Assembly: GCA_963767115.1 (NCBI GenBank)
Contig: CAVYCR010000003.1
Coordinates: 27,559-91,558 of the forward strand
DNA from: Candidatus Kaiserbacteria bacterium
GTDB taxonomy: Bacteria > Patescibacteriota > Minisyncoccia > Phycocordibacterales > UBA2100
DNA: 64,000 bases
Reading direction: 5' to 3'
The position numbers were made by a program, and so were the translations under genes. Below the pieces are notes generated by a model. It saw only the letters and a program-made list of their open reading frames with translations, was not told the DNA's origin and made no database searches. Below are positions 4,576-58,714 of the stretch, one piece after another; the stretch's first letter is position 1; each line of letters starts with the position of its first letter.

Positions 4576-6168
4576 ATGGCCAAAGACTATTTCCAAGACA
4601 TTGTGCCGCCCGGTGAACCGAGCCCTAAGTCGAAGGCAGCGAGGTCGCGCATCGTGCGGCCAGTCGCTAAAAAGCATGTTCGCACTGTGACGGCAAAAAC
4701 ACCTGAGCCGGAACCAAAGATTGTTGATAGCTACACAGATGCTGACGATGAGGACACTATCGGTACCGTCTCCAATAAATCATCAGAGAACGATCACCGC
4801 CAATTCAACGTAGAGGAGCCGCTCGTCCAAGAAGCGCCGCGCGGTATCCGCAGTATCAACGTCAACCCTACTCGGCCGACTCGTTCTCGTATCGATACAC
4901 CGGAAGTGCGCGAATATCCTACATTTAATAATAGCCCACGTCCGTTGCCGCCGCGCCCGAACGCAGAGCGGTCACGGCTGTGGATCTGGATCGTTGCCGC
5001 GGTGTGCATAGTAGTCTTGATCGGCATCGCACTGGTCGCTTTTCGCTCGACGACGGTCACCGTCACGCCGCGTGAGCAAGACATCACCTTCGATCAATCC
5101 GCACAATTCATCGCATACCCGGCTGCGAGCGCCGCCTCCGGCACGCTTGCGTATACGGTCGCGACGACCAACCTCTCTGCTTCAGAGAGTGCTGCCGGGC
5201 AGGGGACTACCCATGTCGACAGTAAGGCGAGTGGCACGATCACTGTCTACAACAATTACTCGGCTTCCAGCGTGAAGCTCGTAGCAAGCACTCGCTTCGC
5301 AAGCTCAGGCGGCCTTATTTTCCGTACACCCGCGACCGTTGTCATTCCGGGCAAATCAGGCTCAACACCGGGACAAGTTTCCATAACTGTTTTTGCAGAC
5401 CAGGCTGGCTCGCAATATGACGTGGCTCCGGGCAAATTCACCGTACCGGGCCTTCAGTCGACGCCAGCAATGTATGCAGGTATCTATGCGCAATCAACCT
5501 CCGCCATGAGCGGTGGTTTCTCAGGCAACGAAAACGGCGTTTCCGATACACAGCGTGCCGCCGCGGTTGCTGATCTTCGTGCGCAGTTGCAGGAGCAAGC
5601 GGCGCAATACGCAGCCTCGCTTCAAAATGCATCTACCACAGCGTTTGCTTCGCTTGCCCAAGTGGCTTATCAAGACATGCCGGATACGGAAGTCTCAAGC
5701 AGCTCCGTCGGTATCAACGAAAGCGCAACGGTGAGCATACCTGTCTTTGCGGCCTCTGACCTAGCATCAACCGTTGCATTTGCCCAAAATATCACCACCA
5801 GCGGCTCCTCGATCACTCTGGTAGCTGGCCATGGTTATGGCGCAGAGCTTACGAGTGCGTCCTCGACGGTCTTGGGCACTGATCCTGTTGATTTCTCTCT
5901 TGTGGGAAGCGCTAGCCTCGTCTGGCAGATCGATCAAAGCCAACTAGCCTCCGCGCTCGCCGGCAAGAATCAATCAGCGTTTCAGAGCATAATCGCCGGG
6001 TTCCCGGGTATTCAGAGCGCACATGCCCGTATAGAGCCATTCTGGAGCCAAACCTTCCCAAGCAACCCTTCTAGTATCAAAATCACGGTTCTGGCCCCTC
6101 AATCAGGCAATTCTGGGAGCCCAGCTCCGAATTCAACCTCTTCATCAGGCTCGGCAAGCGGCCAGTAG
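4576..6168 (+). CDS. single-pass membrane protein: disordered basic N-terminus, large Ser/Ala/Thr-rich ectodomain
   Basis: 530-aa ORF with one hydrophobic helix (LWIWIVAAVCIVVLIGIALVAF). No recognisable catalytic motif. Confidence 0.55.
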   Translation: MAKDYFQDIVPPGEPSPKSKAARSRIVRPVAKKHVRTVTAKTPEPEPKIVDSYTDADDEDTIGTVSNKSSENDHRQFNVEEPLVQEAPRGIRSINVNPTRPTRSRIDTPEVREYPTFNNSPRPLPPRPNAERSRLWIWIVAAVCIVVLIGIALVAFRSTTVTVTPREQDITFDQSAQFIAYPAASAASGTLAYTVATTNLSASESAAGQGTTHVDSKASGTITVYNNYSASSVKLVASTRFASSGGLIFRTPATVVIPGKSGSTPGQVSITVFADQAGSQYDVAPGKFTVPGLQSTPAMYAGIYAQSTSAMSGGFSGNENGVSDTQRAAAVADLRAQLQEQAAQYAASLQNASTTAFASLAQVAYQDMPDTEVSSSSVGINESATVSIPVFAASDLASTVAFAQNITTSGSSITLVAGHGYGAELTSASSTVLGTDPVDFSLVGSASLVWQIDQSQLASALAGKNQSAFQSIIAGFPGIQSAHARIEPFWSQTFPSNPSSIKITVLAPQSGNSGSPAPNSTSSSGSASGQ

Positions 6169-11413: not shown

Positions 11414-11449
11414 CTCCTGTAATTTACCCAATTGGTGAATTTACAGGAG
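11414..11449. promoter_or_regulatory. 36-bp near-palindrome (candidate operator), copy 1
   Basis: ctcctgtaatttacccaattggtgaatttacaggag: 15 of 18 symmetric pairs. Ends 26 nt before ATG 11476 and overlaps a TTGACT-N16-TGTAAT promoter-like motif. Confidence 0.6.
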
Positions 11450-11475
11450 CACTGTATGATGATACGATCAAAGAT

Positions 11476-12057
11476 ATGGCGACCAAATTTGCAGGTATCA
11501 AAACTGTCGCGGAATACCGACGCGGCGAGCTGGCGCGTGATATCTTGCGACTCATCGGCGCAGGGGTCGCTGTCGGAGCCACTATTGTTGCGCCTAATAC
11601 CGTGCAACTCATAGATTATTTAGATCCGAAAGGTCGCAATGAACGCAATCGAATCTGGAAAACTATCAAGTATCTCGAGGAAAAAGACCGTGTGACTTTC
11701 CAGGAGCGTGACGGCCATACGTACGTGCAACTTACTGCAACGGGTAGGCAGCAGCTCGATGAGGATGCTATTTGGGAACTTGCGATCGCGCGTCCGCGGC
11801 GCTGGGATCACAAGTGGCGCATCGTGATGTTTGATTTGCCGAGCAAGCGTGAGACCGCACGACAGGCTTTTCGACATAAGCTGGAGGATCTTGGCTTCAA
11901 GTTTTATCAGAGGTCGGTGTTTATTTTCCCGTATGAATGCGCGCAAGAGGTCAATACCGTCGCGCAGTGGTATGGCGTCGAGCAGTATGTGCGGTATATA
12001 GTTGCGACCGAGATCAACGACATGCGCCGTTTCGCGCAATTATTTGACTTGCTTTGA
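11476..12057 (+). CDS. putative transcriptional regulator: winged-helix N-domain plus PaaX_C/Cas2-like C-domain
   Basis: 193 aa. IWKTIKYLEEKDRVTFQERDGHTYVQLTATGRQQL is wHTH-like. WRIVMFDLPSKRETARQAFRHKLEDLGFKFYQRSVFIFP has the Cas2/PaaX_C-type beta-alpha-beta pattern. Confidence 0.5.
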   Translation: MATKFAGIKTVAEYRRGELARDILRLIGAGVAVGATIVAPNTVQLIDYLDPKGRNERNRIWKTIKYLEEKDRVTFQERDGHTYVQLTATGRQQLDEDAIWELAIARPRRWDHKWRIVMFDLPSKRETARQAFRHKLEDLGFKFYQRSVFIFPYECAQEVNTVAQWYGVEQYVRYIVATEINDMRRFAQLFDLL

Positions 12058-12081: not shown

Positions 12082-12117
12082 CTCCAGTAAATTCACCAAT
12101 TGGTTAAATTACAGGAG
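12082..12117. promoter_or_regulatory. 36-bp near-palindrome (candidate operator), copy 2
   Basis: ctccagtaaattcaccaattggttaaattacaggag matches the reverse complement of copy 1 at 34/36. Ends 63 nt upstream of the dnaK ATG. Confidence 0.6.
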
Positions 12118-12180
12118 CACGTGCAAAACCACTGCAACTTTTATATACTTATAAAAAAACTATTAGAATAACCACAAAAT

Positions 12181-14040
12181 ATGGCAAAAATCATAGGCAT
12201 TGATTTGGGCACGACCAATTCTGCGATAGCAGTCGTCAAAGGCGGCGAGCCGGAAATCTTGGAAAACGCGGAGGGTGCGCGCACGACGCCTTCGATCGTC
12301 GCTACATCGAAGACTGGCGAGCGCCTTGTAGGCCTTCTTGCGAAGCGCCAGGCCGTCACCAATCCAAAGAACACAGTTTACCAGATCAAGCGCTTCATCG
12401 GCCACAACTTCGACGAGCCGCTCGTGCAGAAAGACCGCGGAGCCGTGCCTTTTGAGACACAAAAATCCGCTAACGGAGGCATCGAGGTCAAAATGGACGA
12501 CAAGTGGTATCGCCCCGAAGAGATTTCAGCGATGATCCTCCAGAAGCTCAAGGCAGATGCAGAGGCACGCCTCGGTGAGACCATCACGGAGGCAGTCATC
12601 ACGGTGCCCGCTTACTTCAATGATTCGCAACGCCAAGCCACCAAGGATGCCGGCAAGATCGCAGGCCTCGACGTGAAGCGCATCATCAACGAGCCGACCG
12701 CGGCTGCGCTTGCCTACGGCTTCAACAAGAAGAAGAACGAGAAAATCGTCGTCTTCGACTTCGGCGGCGGCACCTTCGATATCTCCGTGCTCGAAGTGGG
12801 CGACGATGTGATCGAGGTACGTTCGACCGACGGCGACGCGCACCTCGGCGGCAAGGACATCGACCAGAAGATCATGGATTGGATCGCAGAGGAGTTCAAG
12901 AAAGAAAGCGGCATCGACGTGCGCAATGACCCGCTCGGACGCCAGCGTCTCGACGAAGCCGCGGAGAAGGCCAAGATCGAACTCTCAACTGCGCTCGAAA
13001 GCGAGATCAACATCCCATTCATTACCTCGGACAGTTCCGGCCCGCGTCACTTGCTCGTGAAGCTTACACGCGGCAAGCTTGAAGAACTCACCCAGGAATT
13101 CGTCGATCGCGCGATGACCATCACCAAACGTGCGATGGAAGCATCACCCTTCAAGGTCAGTGATATCAACGAAGTCGTGCTTGTCGGAGGCCAGACTCGC
13201 ATGCCCGCTCTGCAGAAAGCAGTCGAGCAATTCTTCTCCCGCAAGCCCAACATGAGCGTCAACCCCGACGAGGTTGTGGCGCTTGGCGCCGCTATACAAG
13301 GCGGTATCTTGCAGGGTGATGTGAAAGACGTGCTCCTACTCGATGTGATCCCGCTTTCACTCGGTATCGAGACCATGGGCGGCGTCGCGACCAAGCTCAT
13401 CGAGCGCAACACGACCATCCCGACCTCGCGCTCGCAAACGTTCTCTACCGCTTCTGACAACCAACCCTCGGTCGAGATCCACGTCGTGCAAGGCGAACGC
13501 CCGATGGCTCCCGACAACAAATCACTTGGCCGTTTCAACCTCGACGGTATTCCGCCGGCGCCGCGCGGTATGCCCCAGGTCGAGGTTACCTTCGATATCG
13601 ACGCCAACGGCATACTTACCGTGAAGGCAAAAGACAAGACGACCAACAAAGAGCAGTCGATACGCATCGAGGGCTCCTCAGGCCTCTCAGATGCCGACAT
13701 CCAGAAAATGCGTGAAGACGCCGAGAAAAACGCAGACATCGACAAGCAAAAACACGAGCTTGTGGAAGCACAAAACGCAGCCGATCAAATTGTGTATGCG
13801 GCGGAGAAGGCACTCAAGGATCATGGCGACAAGGTCGGCGATGATATCAAGAAGGGCGTGCAGGAAAAGATCGATGCGCTCAAGACTGCGCGCAACGGCA
13901 GCGATCTTGCGGTTATCAAGTCAGCTTCTGAGGCACTTTCTACAGAGATGAGCAAAATCGGCGAGACCATGTCTAAGAACCAAGAATCGCCACAAGCATC
14001 GACCGACCAGTCTCCGCCTTCTGACAATAACCAACAATAA
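12181..14040 (+). CDS. dnaK: molecular chaperone DnaK (Hsp70)
   Basis: 619 aa with canonical Hsp70 motifs ([30 protein letters not shown]). Confidence 0.97.
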
Positions 14041-14053
14041 GCACAAGACCATC

Positions 14054-14131
14054 GACCTCGCCCAAAGAAATATTCTTTTGCGACCCGAACGATAGGCGGA
14101 AGCGCAAAAGAATATTTCTTTGGGCGAGGTC
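14054..14131. repeat. foldback element, type 1: perfect 29-bp arms and a 20-nt loop
   Basis: Arms 14054-14082 and 14103-14131 are exact reverse complements. The loop is acccgaacgataggcggaag. Confidence 0.85.
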
Positions 14132-14165
14132 TGGTATATTTCTATCTCAGGCACATAATGTAACT

Positions 14166-15245
14166 ATGAAAGATTATTACGAAATCCTCGGCGTGCCGAA
14201 AGGTGCCAGCGAAGACGACATCAAGAAAGCATTCCGCAAGCTCGCGCAGAAGCATCACCCCGACAAGAAGGGAGGCGACGAAGCGAAGTTCAAGGAGGCG
14301 AGCGAGGCATATGCCGTGCTTTCTGACAAAAAGAAGCGCGCTGAGTATGACGCCTACGGCAAGACATTTGCTGGCCATTCGACAGGCTCAGGCCAAGGTG
14401 GTCCATTTGGCGGGTTCGATTTCTCAAATTTTACCAACGGGGGCGGACAAGGACAACAATTCGAATTCGACCTCGGAGATATATTTGGTGATATCTTCGG
14501 CGGAGGCAGCGCGCAACAACAAGCGCGAGGACGTGACGTCTCGATCGATATCGAGCTCTCGTTTCGCGAAAGCGTCTTTGGCACGGAGCGACGCGTCCTT
14601 GTATCTAAAATAGGTCTCTGTGATACCTGCAATGGCTCTGGTGCCAAGCCAGGCACGAAGATGACCCAATGCAAGACCTGCAACGGCAAAGGCGAGATCC
14701 GTGAGACACGCAATACATTCTTCGGTCAATTCACGTCGGCGCGTGTGTGCTCCACTTGTAATGGTCGCGGTGAAGTTCCCGAGACACCGTGTCCGACATG
14801 TCAGGGCAGAGGTGTAATGAAAAAGCAAGAAGAGATCCATATCCAAGTGCCATCAGGCGTCCAAGACGGCGAGATGATCCGCATGACAGGCCGTGGTGAA
14901 GTAGTACAAGCCGGCGGGGCAGGGGATCTCTATGTGAAGTTGCATGTCAAAAAAGATCCTGCATTTTCGCGCGAAGGAAATAACTTGCTGACGAATCTTT
15001 CGATCAAGCTTACCGACGCGCTTCTCGGAGGACAGTACACTATCCGGTCGCTCGACGGCGATGAGAAGATCAACGTCTCGCCCGGGGTCGCGCATGGCGA
15101 GATCATTCGCGTGCGCGGCAAAGGTGTGCCCACCGCCAGAAGCGGCCGCGGAGATCTTCTCGTGCGTATCGACATTGAATTCCCCAAGAAGCTTTCGCGC
15201 AGCGCGCGCGACCTCATCGAGAAGCTGCGTAGTGAAGGATTGTAG
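14166..15245 (+). CDS. dnaJ: molecular chaperone DnaJ (Hsp40)
   Basis: J-domain with HPD (KHHPDKK), a G/F-rich region, and four CxxCxGxG zinc-finger repeats. Confidence 0.95.
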
Positions 15246-15254
15246 CAGGTGACA

Positions 15255-15362
15255 TATCCCAGCTGCGGCTGTTTTGCCGTCTACGCAGGCGCGGCGGCGC
15301 CGAGTCCGAGCGCTGGGCGAGCACGCCCAGACAGCGACGGCAAAACAGCCGCAGCTGGGATA
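15255..15362. repeat. foldback element, type 2: perfect 27-bp arms and a 54-nt core with two internal hairpins
   Basis: Arms 15255-15281 and 15336-15362 are exact reverse complements. The core is shared with 55975..56094. Confidence 0.85.
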
Positions 15363-15387
15363 CGCCAAGGAAAACGTAGGTTATACT

Positions 15388-27250: not shown

Positions 27251-27365
27251 GCGTATCCTCTCGTTACATATTTTTGAAGCCGAGGACCGAACCCGCAGAC
27301 CGCGAAGCGGGCGTGAGGGCGCTTGCGTCCCGCAGGATTCAAAAATATGTAACGAGAGGATACGC
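27251..27365. repeat. foldback element: perfect 28-bp arms and a 59-nt GC-rich core
   Basis: Arms 27251-27278 and 27338-27365 are exact reverse complements, between ftsW and murG. Confidence 0.8.
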
Positions 27366-32473: not shown

Positions 32474-32955
32474 CGGGTGTATGAAGGCGGTTCGATACAC
32501 CACAGGAACAAGGGACCCGACCTCGCCCTTCTTGGCGGAAATAGTGAACGACGAGTGGTCTCCCTAGTCCGCTTACAATCGTATAACGAAAGTCCTTTCG
32601 CGCAAAGGGGATAAAATATGAGGTATGTGCTATCCTGCTGACGGCAGCCAGAAAGGAAGTCAAAATGGCCGGTAAATGGGAACACTTGAGGCCCGAATTT
32701 GAGCCGGAAATGAGTCTATGGGACAAATTGACTGAATGGTGGTACCTGCGCATCTATTATCCATTCATGGATTGGTGGAGAGGTCGTGGCGGCGGAGGCG
32801 GTCCACCACGCATGGCATGATCTACGAAAAGCCGTTCGGTCAATCCGGGCGGTTTTACTTATGTAAAAAGGGAAGCCCAGTTGAGCACAATTCTTTAGGT
32901 ATATATGTCGCAAAAGATATAGGTCGAGAATACCAACGTTTTATCAAAGCCTTAT

Positions 32956-35696: not shown

Positions 35697-35772
35697 CGAG
35701 AACGGCTGGGGGAATCTTTTTGCGCTTCCGCCTGTCGTTCGGGTCGCAAAAAGATTCCCCCAGCCGTTCTCG
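35697..35772. repeat. foldback element, type 1 (second copy): perfect 28-bp arms and a 20-nt loop
   Basis: Arms 35697-35724 and 35745-35772. The loop cttccgcctgtcgttcgggt is the reverse complement (19/20) of the loop at 14083-14102. Confidence 0.85.
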
Positions 35773-35788
35773 ACATCTACCCTATTAG

Positions 35789-36172
35789 TTAGTTCAAACC
35801 TTTGCAATTCTTAGCAGCCTTATACCCTGCTGCCTGAGCTGCGGCCTCGTCCTTGAACCACACTTGCTTCCCTATTGGGATACTTTCTGCAGCTGCGCAC
35901 CAGGGGAAATAATAGACAGTGCCGGTGTCAGAGCCGACGTATTGCCCACCAAGGAAAATGCCTTGCGGCTCTTGTAAAACAGGTGCTTGGATGATCGAAA
36001 CCGGCGGTTCGACCTCTTCTTGAGCCGAGAGCCTACCCAAGCCAAATGCGCAGAATGTGCTTAGAAATATGAGTATTATAGTGCCCCACTGCCCTACCAA
36101 GCCCTCGAAGGATTCCACGAATACAAACTTGCATTTGTGCCATAATTCCTGTATATTCTCATGACTCCTCAT
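35789..36172 (-). CDS. membrane-anchored protein with a C-terminal sunset-type Cys motif
   Basis: One TM helix. C-terminus [37 protein letters not shown]. Confidence 0.55.
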
Positions 36173-36486: not shown

Positions 36487-36610
36487 GGCAAGCCCGCCTC
36501 GCGGGATTTTGTTTTTTTGGGTCGTTCTTTTTCTGCTGAAAAAGAACTCTGTTTCGCGCCGCCGCGCTGCAAAGACCCCAAAAAACAAAATCCCGCGAGG
36601 CGGGCTTGCC
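36487..36610. terminator. mirror-image twin terminators forming a 37-bp-arm foldback
   Basis: Arm 36487-36523 (gcccgcctcgcggg + attttgttttttt) and its inverted copy 36574-36610 (1 mismatch) lie between convergent rpmA and rplI. The 50-nt centre has its own 9-bp hairpin. Confidence 0.75.
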
Positions 36611-55974: not shown

Positions 55975-56094
55975 GGCGCGCACTGGCGAGGTAGGTATTT
56001 TGCCGGCTACGCAGGCCCGACGGGGCCGAGTCCGAGCGCTGGGCTAGCAAGCCCAGATAGCGACGGCAAAATACCTACCTCGCCAGTGCGCGCC
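55975..56094. repeat. foldback element, type 2 (second copy): 31-bp arms with the conserved core
   Basis: Arms 55975-56005 and 56064-56094 are exact reverse complements. The core aligns with 15271-15345 at 67/74, with two compensatory pair changes. Confidence 0.85.
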
Positions 56095-56102
56095 TAACAA
56101 CC

Positions 56103-56872
56103 TTAATGCGCCGCGTGAGGATCCGTGATGGCGAGCTTGATAAAGAAAAGCGTGAGGAGCGCGAAGACCGCGGCTTGGACGAAACCGACGAATATTTCAA
56201 AGGCCATGAGGGGCGCCGGCACGATGTACGGCGCGAAATAGGTCGCAACCGCGATAAGGACTTCGCCCGCAAAAATGTTGCCGAAGAGACGAAAAGAGAA
56301 TGAGACGAAGCGCGAAAGCTCGGAGACAAATTCGATGATGCCGATCGATGAAGTTGAGCAAGCGGTTGCCGAGTCCCTCTCCGCGGAAGGTGAAGAATTT
56401 GCCCGCGTAGCGTCCAGAAGCCTACGGCGATGATGCCGAAGACTTCTATAGAGATCACCGAGATGATCGCAAGCGTGAGCGTCACATTGAGGTCGGTGTT
56501 GACGCTGCGCAGAAGCGGCGTGAAGGTACCGTCAGCAGCATAGAAGCCGACTGAGCCGATGCCCGGCGTGAATTCGATCAGGTTGGACGTCGCGATGAAG
56601 AGGAAGATCGTGATGAGAAGCGGGAAAGCGCGTCGCGACCATTTTTCGTCCTCGAGCGTCTCCTTGATGAAGTCCTGCATGTAGATCACGAGCGATTCGA
56701 GGAGTGCTTGGAAGCGGCCCGGCACGTACGAGAGCCTGCGTCGCACCACGATCGCTGCTATGATGAGGATAGTGATCGCGACCCAGCTCGTGAGCAGGGT
56801 GTTGGTGATAGGAATCCCCCACAATGTGCCTATCTGCTCGGGCGCGAGCATGACTGAAATTCCGCTTTGCAT
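56103..56872 (-). CDS. atpB: Fo ATP synthase a subunit, interrupted by two +1 frameshifts (near 56417-56420 and 56350-56353)
   Basis: The N-terminal frame is good to ...IEVFGIIAVGF. The next frame reads GRYAGKFFTFRGEGLGNRLLNF. The third frame reads IGIIEFVSELSRFVSFSFRLFGNIFAGEVL...DPHAAH*, stopping at 56103. The Ser/Arg-rich tail of the track ORF (to 56075) is out of frame. Confidence 0.8.
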
Positions 56873-56893
56873 AATGGAACGATTCTAACACAA

Positions 56894-56931
56894 AGCACAA
56901 AAAACCGCCCTTACGAGCGGTTTTTTGTGCT
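56894..56931. terminator. bidirectional terminator-like hairpin (15-bp perfect stem with A-run/T-run flanks)
   Basis: agcacaaaaaaccgc-ccttacga-gcggttttttgtgct, between the fasciclin gene and atpB. Confidence 0.7.
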
Positions 56932-56957
56932 TGTCCACTTATCTACTTAGACCTAGT

Positions 56958-58465: not shown

Positions 58466-58537
58466 GGCCCTATCGTCTAACGGTTAGGACGCCGGCTTCT
58501 CAAGCCGTTAATCGGGGTTCGATTCCCCGTAGGGTCA
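58466..58537 (+). tRNA. tRNA-Glu (anticodon CUC); CCA not encoded
   Basis: Manual cloverleaf. Acceptor GGCCCTA/TAGGGTC (one G-U pair), D-arm GTCTAACGGTTAGGAC, anticodon loop TTCTCAA, T-arm CGGGG-TTCGATT-CCCCG, discriminator A. Confidence 0.85.
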
Positions 58538-58585
58538 CAAAAATAACGAGACCGATGCATGTCATCGGGCGAATCTATTTTTGTA

Positions 58586-58714
58586 GGCCCTACGGGGAAT
58601 CGAAAGACGGAGGCGAGGTCCCCTGCAAGCTTGCAGGGCGCCCAGTCAGGGTCGTGGAATTTTTGGAGCGACGGCGACAAAAATATCCCTGACCGATCCC
58701 CGTAGGGTCACAAA
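58586..58714. repeat. structured ~130-bp segment bounded by an inverted and a direct copy of the tRNA-Glu 3' end
   Basis: 58586-58604 ggccctacggggaatcgaa is inverted relative to the tRNA T-arm/acceptor. 58694-58714 cgatccccgtagggtcacaaa is direct. Perfect 18-bp palindrome ccctgcaagcttgcaggg at 58621-58638. Confidence 0.75.

Follow-up and report, generated by a model that had tools for sequence, protein, structure and literature searches.

The window analysed here, a 64-kb stretch of a Paceibacterota genome, contains six long foldback elements, one of which, T2a (15255-15362), is the subject of this analysis. T2a is composed of a conserved core, which folds as a three-way junction, and a long outer stem that is perfectly paired. 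The same core is present in a second copy in the window, T2b (55975-56094), in the foldback T4 and in two intergenic repeats of a related genome, and the whole units, arms included, are absent from every testable orthologous site in relatives. We read T2a as one copy of a lineage-specific, non-autonomous and modular family of structured non-coding repeats, akin to MITEs (miniature transposable elements with inverted repeats) and repetitive extragenic palindromic (REP) elements. Its stems would be made or kept perfect by copying at the DNA level, and in transcripts would serve as very stable hairpins at gene 3' ends or between cistrons. We give this reading as a whole a probability of about 0.5.

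A conserved three-way-junction core

The whole T2a unit spans 15250-15367 on the plus strand and contains the perfect arms, five imperfectly paired nucleotides on each side and the core. The left arm (15255-15281) and the right arm (15336-15362) are exact reverse complements over 27 bp, as the first-pass annotation of this stretch had stated and as both direct reading and repeat finding confirm. The pairing extends beyond them, reaching 32 nt at 94% over the unit. The left arm is made up of a copy-specific part, followed by TTTT and the inner stem GCCGTC. The core (15276-15341) is formed by the closing stem GCCGTC/GACGGC, the junction TACGCAG, a first hairpin (H1, 15288-15301), a linker and a second hairpin (H2, 15313-15330) with an AGCA loop.

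T2b contains a second copy of this core, enclosed by perfect 31-bp arms (55975-56005/56064-56094) that are unrelated to those of T2a. The two 74-nt cores (15272-15345 and 55998-56071) are 91% identical. The 67/74 match and two compensatory pairs reported in the annotation are both found by direct reading, with four of the seven differences forming one pair in each hairpin. In H1, GGCGC-GGCG-GCGCC of T2a corresponds to GGCCC-GACG-GGGCC of T2b (G/C with C/G), and in H2, CTGGGCG-AGCA-CGCCCAG corresponds to CTGGGCT-AGCA-AGCCCAG (G/T with C/A). The remaining differences are located in the H1 loop, at the inner end of the closing stem (T/G) and in the segment ACAGC/ATAGC. The RNA folding energies are -81.7 kcal/mol for T2a and -95.3 kcal/mol for T2b (z = -9.8 and -10.7), values that none of 200 shuffles equals.

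BLAST of the cores against relatives reveals a similarity between the minus-strand core of T4 (36518-36579) and two intergenic repeats in L016, the metagenome-assembled genome (MAG) GCA_035524715.1. One of these repeats is located just past the grpE stop (about 5125-5190), and the other upstream of infA (about 172-240). Both are armless and do not fold into a long stem. T2, T4 and the L016 repeats share one plan, in which the closing stem GNNGTC/GACNNC leads into the junction T(A/T)(C/T)GCAG. Next come a hairpin rich in GC, a linker rich in purines and another hairpin, whose AGCA loop is invariant. Depending on the member, the H2 stem reads CTGGGCG, CTGGGCT, (G)TTCTTTTTC or GGGATTTTTC.

A covariance model, R1, was built from T4 and the two L016 repeats only, with neither T2 copy included, and was run over the window with filters off. 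R1 matches T2a over its full length at 18.8 bits (E about 0.017) and T2b at 13 bits (E about 0.5), and these are the best two full-length matches outside the model's own members in the whole window. R1 thus recovers both T2 copies without having been given either, and therefore T2, T4 and the two L016 repeats share one three-way-junction core. In the five-member family alignment, 93% of the cells pair, compared with 41-57% when the partners are slid. Changes on both sides are found in 11 of the 19 pairs, and H2 covaries in 8/10 pairs. The covariation score is reached by none of 500 shuffles, and is to be read with the alignment being fitted to the model and two of its rows representing the palindromic H2 read backwards. 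No member is found by R1 in the relatives L015, L019, L020, L022, L023, L025 and L026.

These results agree with the view of the first-pass annotation that the core is a conserved structure, and extend it beyond a pair of copies, since T4 and the L016 repeats join the family and add further covariation. The annotation had also taken the covariation as a sign of selection. The conservation of the structure holds, whereas covariation alone is no proof of selection on RNA, and template switching can create compensatory pairs in a single event (PMC8794818).

Six foldbacks, empty sites and shared arm modules

Scanning the whole window with a minimum perfect stem of 12-13 bp and a maximum loop of 130 nt yields exactly six long foldbacks. 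They have perfect stems of 27-31 bp and units of 76-124 bp, and together make up about 1% of this housekeeping region. The only other stems of at least 16 bp are a 16-bp terminator-like palindrome (56893-56932) and a 17-bp stem beside tRNA-Glu, and the lower cut-off adds a few of 12 bp. Seven related Paceibacterota loci, about 100 kb in all, have no perfect stem above 14 bp. The DnaJ and MurG homologues place the host among the Paceibacterota/Kaiserbacteria-like bacteria of the candidate phyla radiation (CPR), and the nearest DnaJ relatives show 84%, 83% and 78% identity. Exact look-ups of the AtpE and L27 proteins, aimed at closer strains, return no record.

The six foldbacks share a common layout. 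A copy-specific perfect arm part of 20-23 nt gives way to TTTT(T)G and a brief conserved inner stem. Beyond the core, ...CAAAA(A) is found as the complement, and the matching arm closes the unit. T1a (14054-14131, plus strand; 29-bp perfect arms, 20-nt loop) is located between dnaK and dnaJ, and T2a between dnaJ and a membrane-protein gene. T3 (27251-27365, plus strand; 28-bp perfect arms) lies between ftsW and murG. T1b (35697-35772, minus strand; 28-bp perfect arms) has a 127-aa open reading frame (ORF) upstream and an RNase T-like gene downstream on the minus strand, and lies 16 nt past the stop of ORF 35789-36172 (minus). T4 (36487-36610, minus strand; 31-bp perfect arms, 40 nt at 95%) is positioned between the convergent genes rpmA and rplI, and each of its arms also holds a hairpin followed by a T-run. 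T2b is located between atpB and atpE, which are on the minus strand.

All six foldbacks sit 0-21 nt past a stop codon, ahead of the promoter or start of the next gene, and the orientation is that of the upstream gene in six of seven informative copies. In particular, T2a begins 4-9 nt downstream of the dnaJ stop (15243-15245), and T2b lies 8 nt past the true stop of atpB (56103-56105, minus strand), ahead of atpE. The atpB gene itself (ATP synthase subunit a; 56103-56872, minus) keeps one frame for about 165 codons and then passes through two frame changes to the conserved C-terminus ...FVGFVQAAVFALLTLFFIKLAITDPHAAH*, so that it is either a pseudogene or carries assembly indels. The listed ORF 56075-56872, which runs into an arm of T2b, is a by-product of these frame changes.

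Two of these elements are also present in a separate assembly. The Logan contig L014 (run ERR11630394) is identical to the window over 13955-15328, and holds T1a in full together with the left arm and most of the core of T2a. An assembler artefact is unlikely because this separate assembly, which may rest on the same reads as that of the window, reproduces T1a fully and T2a in part.

At all five testable orthologous sites in relatives, the whole unit is missing, arms included, and no pre-existing hairpin is found at any of them. In L015, whose DnaJ is 83% identical, the dnaJ stop TAG adjoins GGAAAACGTAGG at the place where the window has the 118-nt T2a unit. The relative continues with GGAAAACGTAGGCTATAAT directly after the stop, and the window reads TAG-CAGG, then the 118-nt unit, then AGGAAAACGTAGGTTATACT. 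L016/L017 and L019 are empty at both the dnaK|dnaJ spacer and the spacer between dnaJ and the next gene, which correspond to the T1a and T2a sites. In L025, the ftsW stop adjoins ACAGTTTGAACAC...TACAAT, and the window at T3 reads TAA-ACAG-CACGGTTCGT, T3, and then CATGCAC-ACAG-TTTGAACAC...TACAAT. Compared with L025, T3 is thus a sharply bounded insertion of 132 nt with ACAG on both sides, and L026 is empty at this site as well. Moreover, in L026/L027 the RNase T spacer is only 21 nt long, leaving the T1b site empty, and rpmA and rplI overlap at TTAA, leaving the T4 site empty.

The arms are mostly, yet not wholly, specific to each copy. The claim that the arms of the two T2 copies are unrelated holds between T2a and T2b, but the outer end of the T2a arm recurs elsewhere. 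GGATACGCCA is the end of the right arm in T2a as well as in T3, at an identical offset 12 nt past the A-run. A common substring of at least 10 nt at any offset between T2a and T3 arises in 15 of 2000 shuffles (0.75%). The outer end GGATACGC(CA) of the T2a right arm is common to T3 and to the L016 repeat labelled L016B, whose 3' extension contains GGGGATACGCC. The match of this extension to the right arm of T2a is reached in 9 of 2000 shuffles, and that to the right arm of T3 in 10 of 2000. In addition, ACATATTTTTGAAG at the inner left end of T3 has its counterpart at the 5' end of L016B, a match reached in none of 2000 shuffles. T3 and L016B therefore have both termini in common around different cores, whereas T2a and T2b have a common core within different arms, which indicates that cores and terminal segments act as re-assorting modules.

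T3 has the complement of its left-terminal motif on the right, and that of its right-terminal motif on the left. The flanks of L016B show at most a degenerate complementarity by eye, which is unused in the minimum-free-energy fold. Judged from these sequences, the arrangement in T3 is what conversion in both directions would produce.

Both L016 repeats carry a conserved 3' extension of about 45 nt (5190-5225 and 238-275), TGAGAGACATGTCKTCAGGG..TACGCCCC..CTTGAC. It ends in a -35-like TTGACA/TTGACT, which in copy A lies 17 nt ahead of a TATAAT upstream of dnaK. The repeat may therefore supply or adjoin a promoter.

Arm against the rest of the window, no match is found at up to four mismatches and no 11-mer is shared, and no arm-like sequence is found in the relatives. 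The GC content of the arms is 61%, compared with 42% in the surrounding spacers. These values and the T2a module shared with other elements speak against reading the 'locus-specific' arms of the first-pass annotation as copies of the local flank. An 8-mer, GGCGAGGT, occurs at 14123, 55985 and 58612 (complements at 14055 and 56077), within the arms of T1a, the arms of T2b and a segment adjacent to tRNA-Glu. It may represent a further shared arm module or chance, and is treated here as possibly chance, as is the 70% similarity of the T1a left flank to 32499-32528.

Proposed copying, possible role and alternatives

The perfect stem runs of the six elements add up to about 174 bp, which contain no mismatch and no G-T pair. 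The few stem mismatches all lie beyond the perfect runs, beside the core or at the outermost ends. Under selection on RNA, G-U pairs typically account for several per cent of stem pairs. The absence of G-T among these pairs, whereas RNA selection tolerates G-U, argues that the stems are made or kept perfect at the DNA level, and the DNA-level process suspected in the first-pass annotation is plausible. During replication, template switching creates perfect hairpins and several simultaneous compensatory changes, homogenises or extends the arms of inverted repeats, and inverts the spacer between them (PMC8794818, PMC5453318, PMC8604942).

In the mechanism that we propose, the unit of core and long outer stem would be inserted whole just past a stop codon, with the outer stem being formed by the element's own 5' and 3' terminal segments. 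The modules would re-assort between copies, so that copies with the same core can carry different arms. A templated process at the DNA level would make or keep both arms Watson-Crick perfect, the candidate being template switching within the molecule, or snap-back synthesis, for which the stable inner hairpin would be the nucleator. A single event of this kind could yield compensatory pairs, and the process could also flip the core between the arms. Such a spacer inversion would account for the antisense position of T2b in its operon, when six of the seven informative copies share the direction of the upstream gene.

A bolder form of this mechanism can be envisaged, which we consider doubtful. 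Here the long arms would be generated de novo or renewed by self-templated (snap-back) synthesis, either at each insertion or continuously, with the core as a palindrome nucleator giving rise to unique stems of about 27-31 bp. Such elements would produce inverted, rather than direct, flanking duplications, a behaviour undescribed for bacterial mobile DNA.

When read through from the upstream gene (dnaK, dnaJ, ftsW, atpB or rplI), the unit would fold into an extremely stable hairpin. A perfect stem of 27-31 bp would block 3' exonucleases and impede RNA polymerase, and its size would fit recognition by RNase III. The hairpins would most likely act as a 3'-end or intercistronic barrier or processing site, that is, as an exonuclease block, an RNase III substrate or a terminator. 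One precedent is provided by the Correia elements, whose hairpins are RNase III substrates. Another is provided by the REP elements (PMC3733652).

Several observations weigh against the reading of T2a as a copy of a mobile, modular family. The evidence for the family comes from eight elements in two genomes. The cores of T1 and T3 give no score with R1 and are not demonstrably related to the T2/T4 core. Because, in addition, the alignment of T1 with T3 is not significant (642 of 2000 shuffles), T1 and T3 are treated as separate core types that share the same outer architecture. The inner stem and loop of T1a and T1b (the latter read on the minus strand) are identical at 33 of 34 positions within wholly unrelated arms. 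This means that either the arms are renewed at each transposition or the modules recombine, and both re-assortment and renewal per insertion fit. No armless or shared-arm copy is visible in the window. The possible target duplications, ACAG at T3 (relative to L025) and AGG at T2a (relative to L015), are weak, and no direct target duplication is evident at the other copies. The window encodes no transposase, reverse transcriptase, recombinase or integrase, so that mobility is deduced solely from the presence and absence of units. The antisense position of T2b relative to the atp operon weakens a strictly RNA-level role. In searches further afield, the exact pattern GCCGAGTCCGAGCGCTGGGC gives 13 matches in GTDB genomes, all of them chance, with a flank identity of 30-38 of 74 positions (including the 20 bases of the pattern) and no foldback. 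The pattern TACGCAGGN{8,12}CCGAGTCCGAGCG gives a single chance match in JGI metagenomes, within a coding region.

An unlikely alternative is a core-only mobile element. After landing, its short inner inverted repeat would fold back and prime the copying of about 20-25 nt of adjacent DNA, giving an inverted duplication and thus unique perfect arms for each copy. It is consistent with the near-identity of the T1a/T1b (33/34) and T2a/T2b (67/74) cores within arms that are unrelated in both pairs, and with the uniform 20-23 nt of the copy-specific arm part, always followed by TTTT(T)G. The foldback at 58518-58604, whose left arm is the native 3' end of tRNA-Glu, is likewise in line with it, and snap-back or template-switch synthesis is documented (PMC8794818, PMC10766183). 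However, at the best-resolved empty sites (dnaJ in L015, ftsW in L025) both arms are missing and the conserved flanks abut. Moreover, no other part of the window matches the arms when up to four mismatches are allowed, the arms are GC-richer than the local spacers (61% vs 42%), and arm modules are common to T2a, T3 and L016B.

Slightly less probable still is a cis-acting structured RNA motif, serving in 3'-UTR (untranslated region) or intercistronic regulation or processing and spread by duplication, with RNA selection maintaining both core and stem. The strong covariation of the core in two genomes, the conserved unpaired segments (YGCAG and the AGCA loop), the sense orientation of six of the seven informative copies and the constant post-stop position inside the conserved operons dnaK|dnaJ, ftsW|murG and atpB|atpE all suit such a motif. 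Set against them, selection on RNA only would hardly leave about 174 bp of outer stem free of G-U, T2b runs antisense, and the units are present or absent among relatives that retain the same operons. In addition, arms and cores re-assort, and no Rfam family is matched.

The first-pass annotation had suggested insertion into a hairpin, and we regard the entry of cores into the loops of existing long hairpins such as terminators as improbable. Other bacteria have insertion sequences that target the loops of palindromes, for example IS1397, which inserts in REP loops. T3 and L016B share arm termini around different cores, which makes a core swap within a foldback possible, and the T4 arms contain a canonical hairpin and T-run. 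Yet none of the five empty sites in relatives has a hairpin, and the arms are both missing along with the core. Furthermore, perfect stems in about 100 kb of relatives do not exceed 14 bp, and the T-run, being on the 5' arm, has the wrong polarity for a terminator.

An inverton, an assembly or amplification artefact, or a guide- or spacer-like hairpin with arms targeting foreign DNA is very improbable. Perfect inverted repeats around a short segment and the opposite orientation of T2a and T2b relative to transcription would suit an inverton, and the variable 20-23 nt have a guide-like length. Yet each locus has different arms, recombinase synapsis would need cores longer than the 20-62 nt present here, the elements recur in a second assembly, and core conservation extends to another MAG. 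Furthermore, arms and cores have no exact match in viral contigs and no BLAST match in phages or plasmids.

Known repeat families and neighbouring features

The preferred reading, a modular family of structured repeats, was compared with described systems. The first-pass annotation could not place the element in a known repeat family, and the analysis agrees that it belongs to none described. No Rfam match is obtained at gathering or E-value thresholds. Particularly, only tRNA-Glu passes the gathering score in the Rfam scan of the window. E-value scans of T2a, T3, T1b, T4 and both L016 repeats return only sub-threshold matches of the miRNA hairpin type.

Like MITEs, the units are short, non-coding and multi-copy, with six units of 76-124 bp and five of five testable sites empty in relatives. 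They also resemble MITEs and the Correia/NEMIS elements of Neisseria in their inverted-repeat ends, in the long hairpin formed when transcribed, and in being intergenic and variably present. However, the terminal repeats of MITEs are conserved across copies and derive from a parent insertion sequence (IS), whereas the arms here differ between copies with the same core, no parent IS or transposase is found in the window, and the target duplications are at best 3-4 bp and inconsistent.

REP elements and REPINs, the latter being hairpins of about 100 nt (PMC3116915), are similar in that REP palindromes are extragenic, located mostly downstream of coding regions between unidirectional or convergent genes, and plausibly form RNA hairpins (PMC3733652). 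They differ in that the stem, a palindrome of 20-40 bp with an unpaired GTAG or CGTC tag, present twice in inverted order in a REPIN, is conserved and the loop free, whereas here the core is conserved and the stem mostly copy-specific. The stems of CGTC REPs are 8-9 bp long with loops of 4-5 nt (PMC3733652). GTAG (on the minus strand) and CGTC are found in the T2 copies only, not in T4 or the L016 repeats, and not beside a stem of 8-9 bp, and the window contains no RAYT gene.

Quasi-palindromes created by template switching share the perfect stems, the simultaneous compensatory changes and the spacer inversion in single DNA-level events (PMC8794818, PMC8604942), but are sporadic at arbitrary loci, whereas here the process would work systematically on all six members of a repeat family and give stems of closely similar length (27-31 bp). 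In addition, the foldbacks resemble the T- or Y-shaped terminal hairpins of parvoviruses such as adeno-associated virus (AAV), in which a long perfect stem surrounds two small hairpins, the internal part occurs in both orientations and self-templated synthesis keeps the stem perfect. Those hairpins, in contrast, are the termini of linear single-stranded DNA viruses served by an HUH Rep protein, while the foldbacks are chromosomal insertions between housekeeping genes with no Rep in view.

Other kinds of element were also considered, of which the canonical terminator, attC, inverton and artefact readings were rejected. A canonical intrinsic terminator has a U-tract directly behind a GC-rich hairpin, and in the units no T-run comes after the stem, the hairpin and T-run inside the T4 arms being the exception. 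The sequence after T2a is CGCCAAGG and that after T2b is TAACAACC, and the T-run lies inside the 5' arm. Integron attC sites, with R''/R' boxes RYYYAAC...GTTRRRY at the stem base, a variable centre and extrahelical bases, have the opposite layout, the base here being variable and the centre conserved. Moreover, the inner ends read TTTTG...CAAAA and the stems are perfect. The IS200/IS605-derived PATEs have two subterminal hairpins, lack terminal inverted repeats and insert 3' of a fixed tetra- or pentanucleotide, with a Y1 TnpA in the genome. The core here does have two small hairpins, but the units have long inverted arms and no common 5' target motif. In an inverton, one recombinase recognises the inverted repeats, which enclose a promoter-bearing segment, whereas here the arms differ per locus, the cores are 20-62 nt long and the window holds no recombinase. 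A spacer or guide role was also abandoned. None of the six elements gives a meaningful BLAST match in phages or plasmids, and viral contigs contain no match for the T2 core 20-mer, the T1 core or the arms of T2b and T1a.

The closest kinds are MITE/Correia and REP/REPIN elements, although the defining features examined (conserved terminal repeats or palindromes, GTAG/CGTC tags, and a parent IS or RAYT in the window) are not seen. A conserved centre with a copy-specific yet perfect long stem is unusual, being the reverse of the usual pattern in hairpin-forming intergenic repeats.

CPR/Paceibacterota genomes are small, gene-dense and not known for repeat families, and here the insertions lie inside the dnaK-dnaJ, atpB-atpE and ftsW-murG operons. 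If the stems do arise by template switching, the family would offer a natural system that displays this mutational mechanism repeatedly and visibly. It would also caution that selection at the RNA level does not necessarily follow from compensatory changes in elements of this kind. Should the stems have a function, the elements would be candidates for signals of intercistronic processing or stabilisation, in a phylum about whose transcript architecture very little is known. The core that is conserved, with its YGCAG junction and AGCA-loop hairpin, would be a candidate new nucleic-acid motif, open to modelling and to searches across CPR genomes.

Several neighbouring features were observed. The last 20 nt or so of tRNA-Glu (window 58466-58714) recur inverted at 58585-58604 and directly at 58693-58714. 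The inverted end forms the foldback 58518-58604 around a core with the hairpin CCGATG-CATGT-CATCGG, which weakly resembles the L016 3' extension (67 of 2000 shuffles). It may derive from an integrated element, as an att-like remnant, or may be a foldback that uses the native gene end as its left arm.

Two near-identical imperfect palindromes of 39 nt (CTCCTGTAATTT...AAATTACAGGAG) are located at 11414-11452 and 12082-12120, flanking ORF 11476-12057. One lies upstream of this ORF, which has a PaaX_M/Cas2-like domain, and the other upstream of dnaK, and they look like an operator pair for a heat-shock regulator between grpE and dnaK. The ORF encodes a protein of the regulator type, conserved in position in relatives, and is not linked to the foldbacks. 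At the grpE-dnaK position of L023 (GCA_035541295.1; 7200-8010), a gene is found for a 236-aa Y1_Tnp protein (RAYT/IS200-like, HUH motif HFHLL). On either side of the gene lies the hairpin TGTGCAAGTC[A/T]GACTTGCACA, so that this CPR genome shows an arrangement resembling REP/RAYT, with a sequence unrelated to the foldbacks. Finally, the segment 31900-33600, located between dcw-cluster genes and a Fic-like ORF, is low in GC (about 45%), with few or no convincing ORFs and no Rfam match, and could represent a degraded island or an undescribed non-coding RNA.

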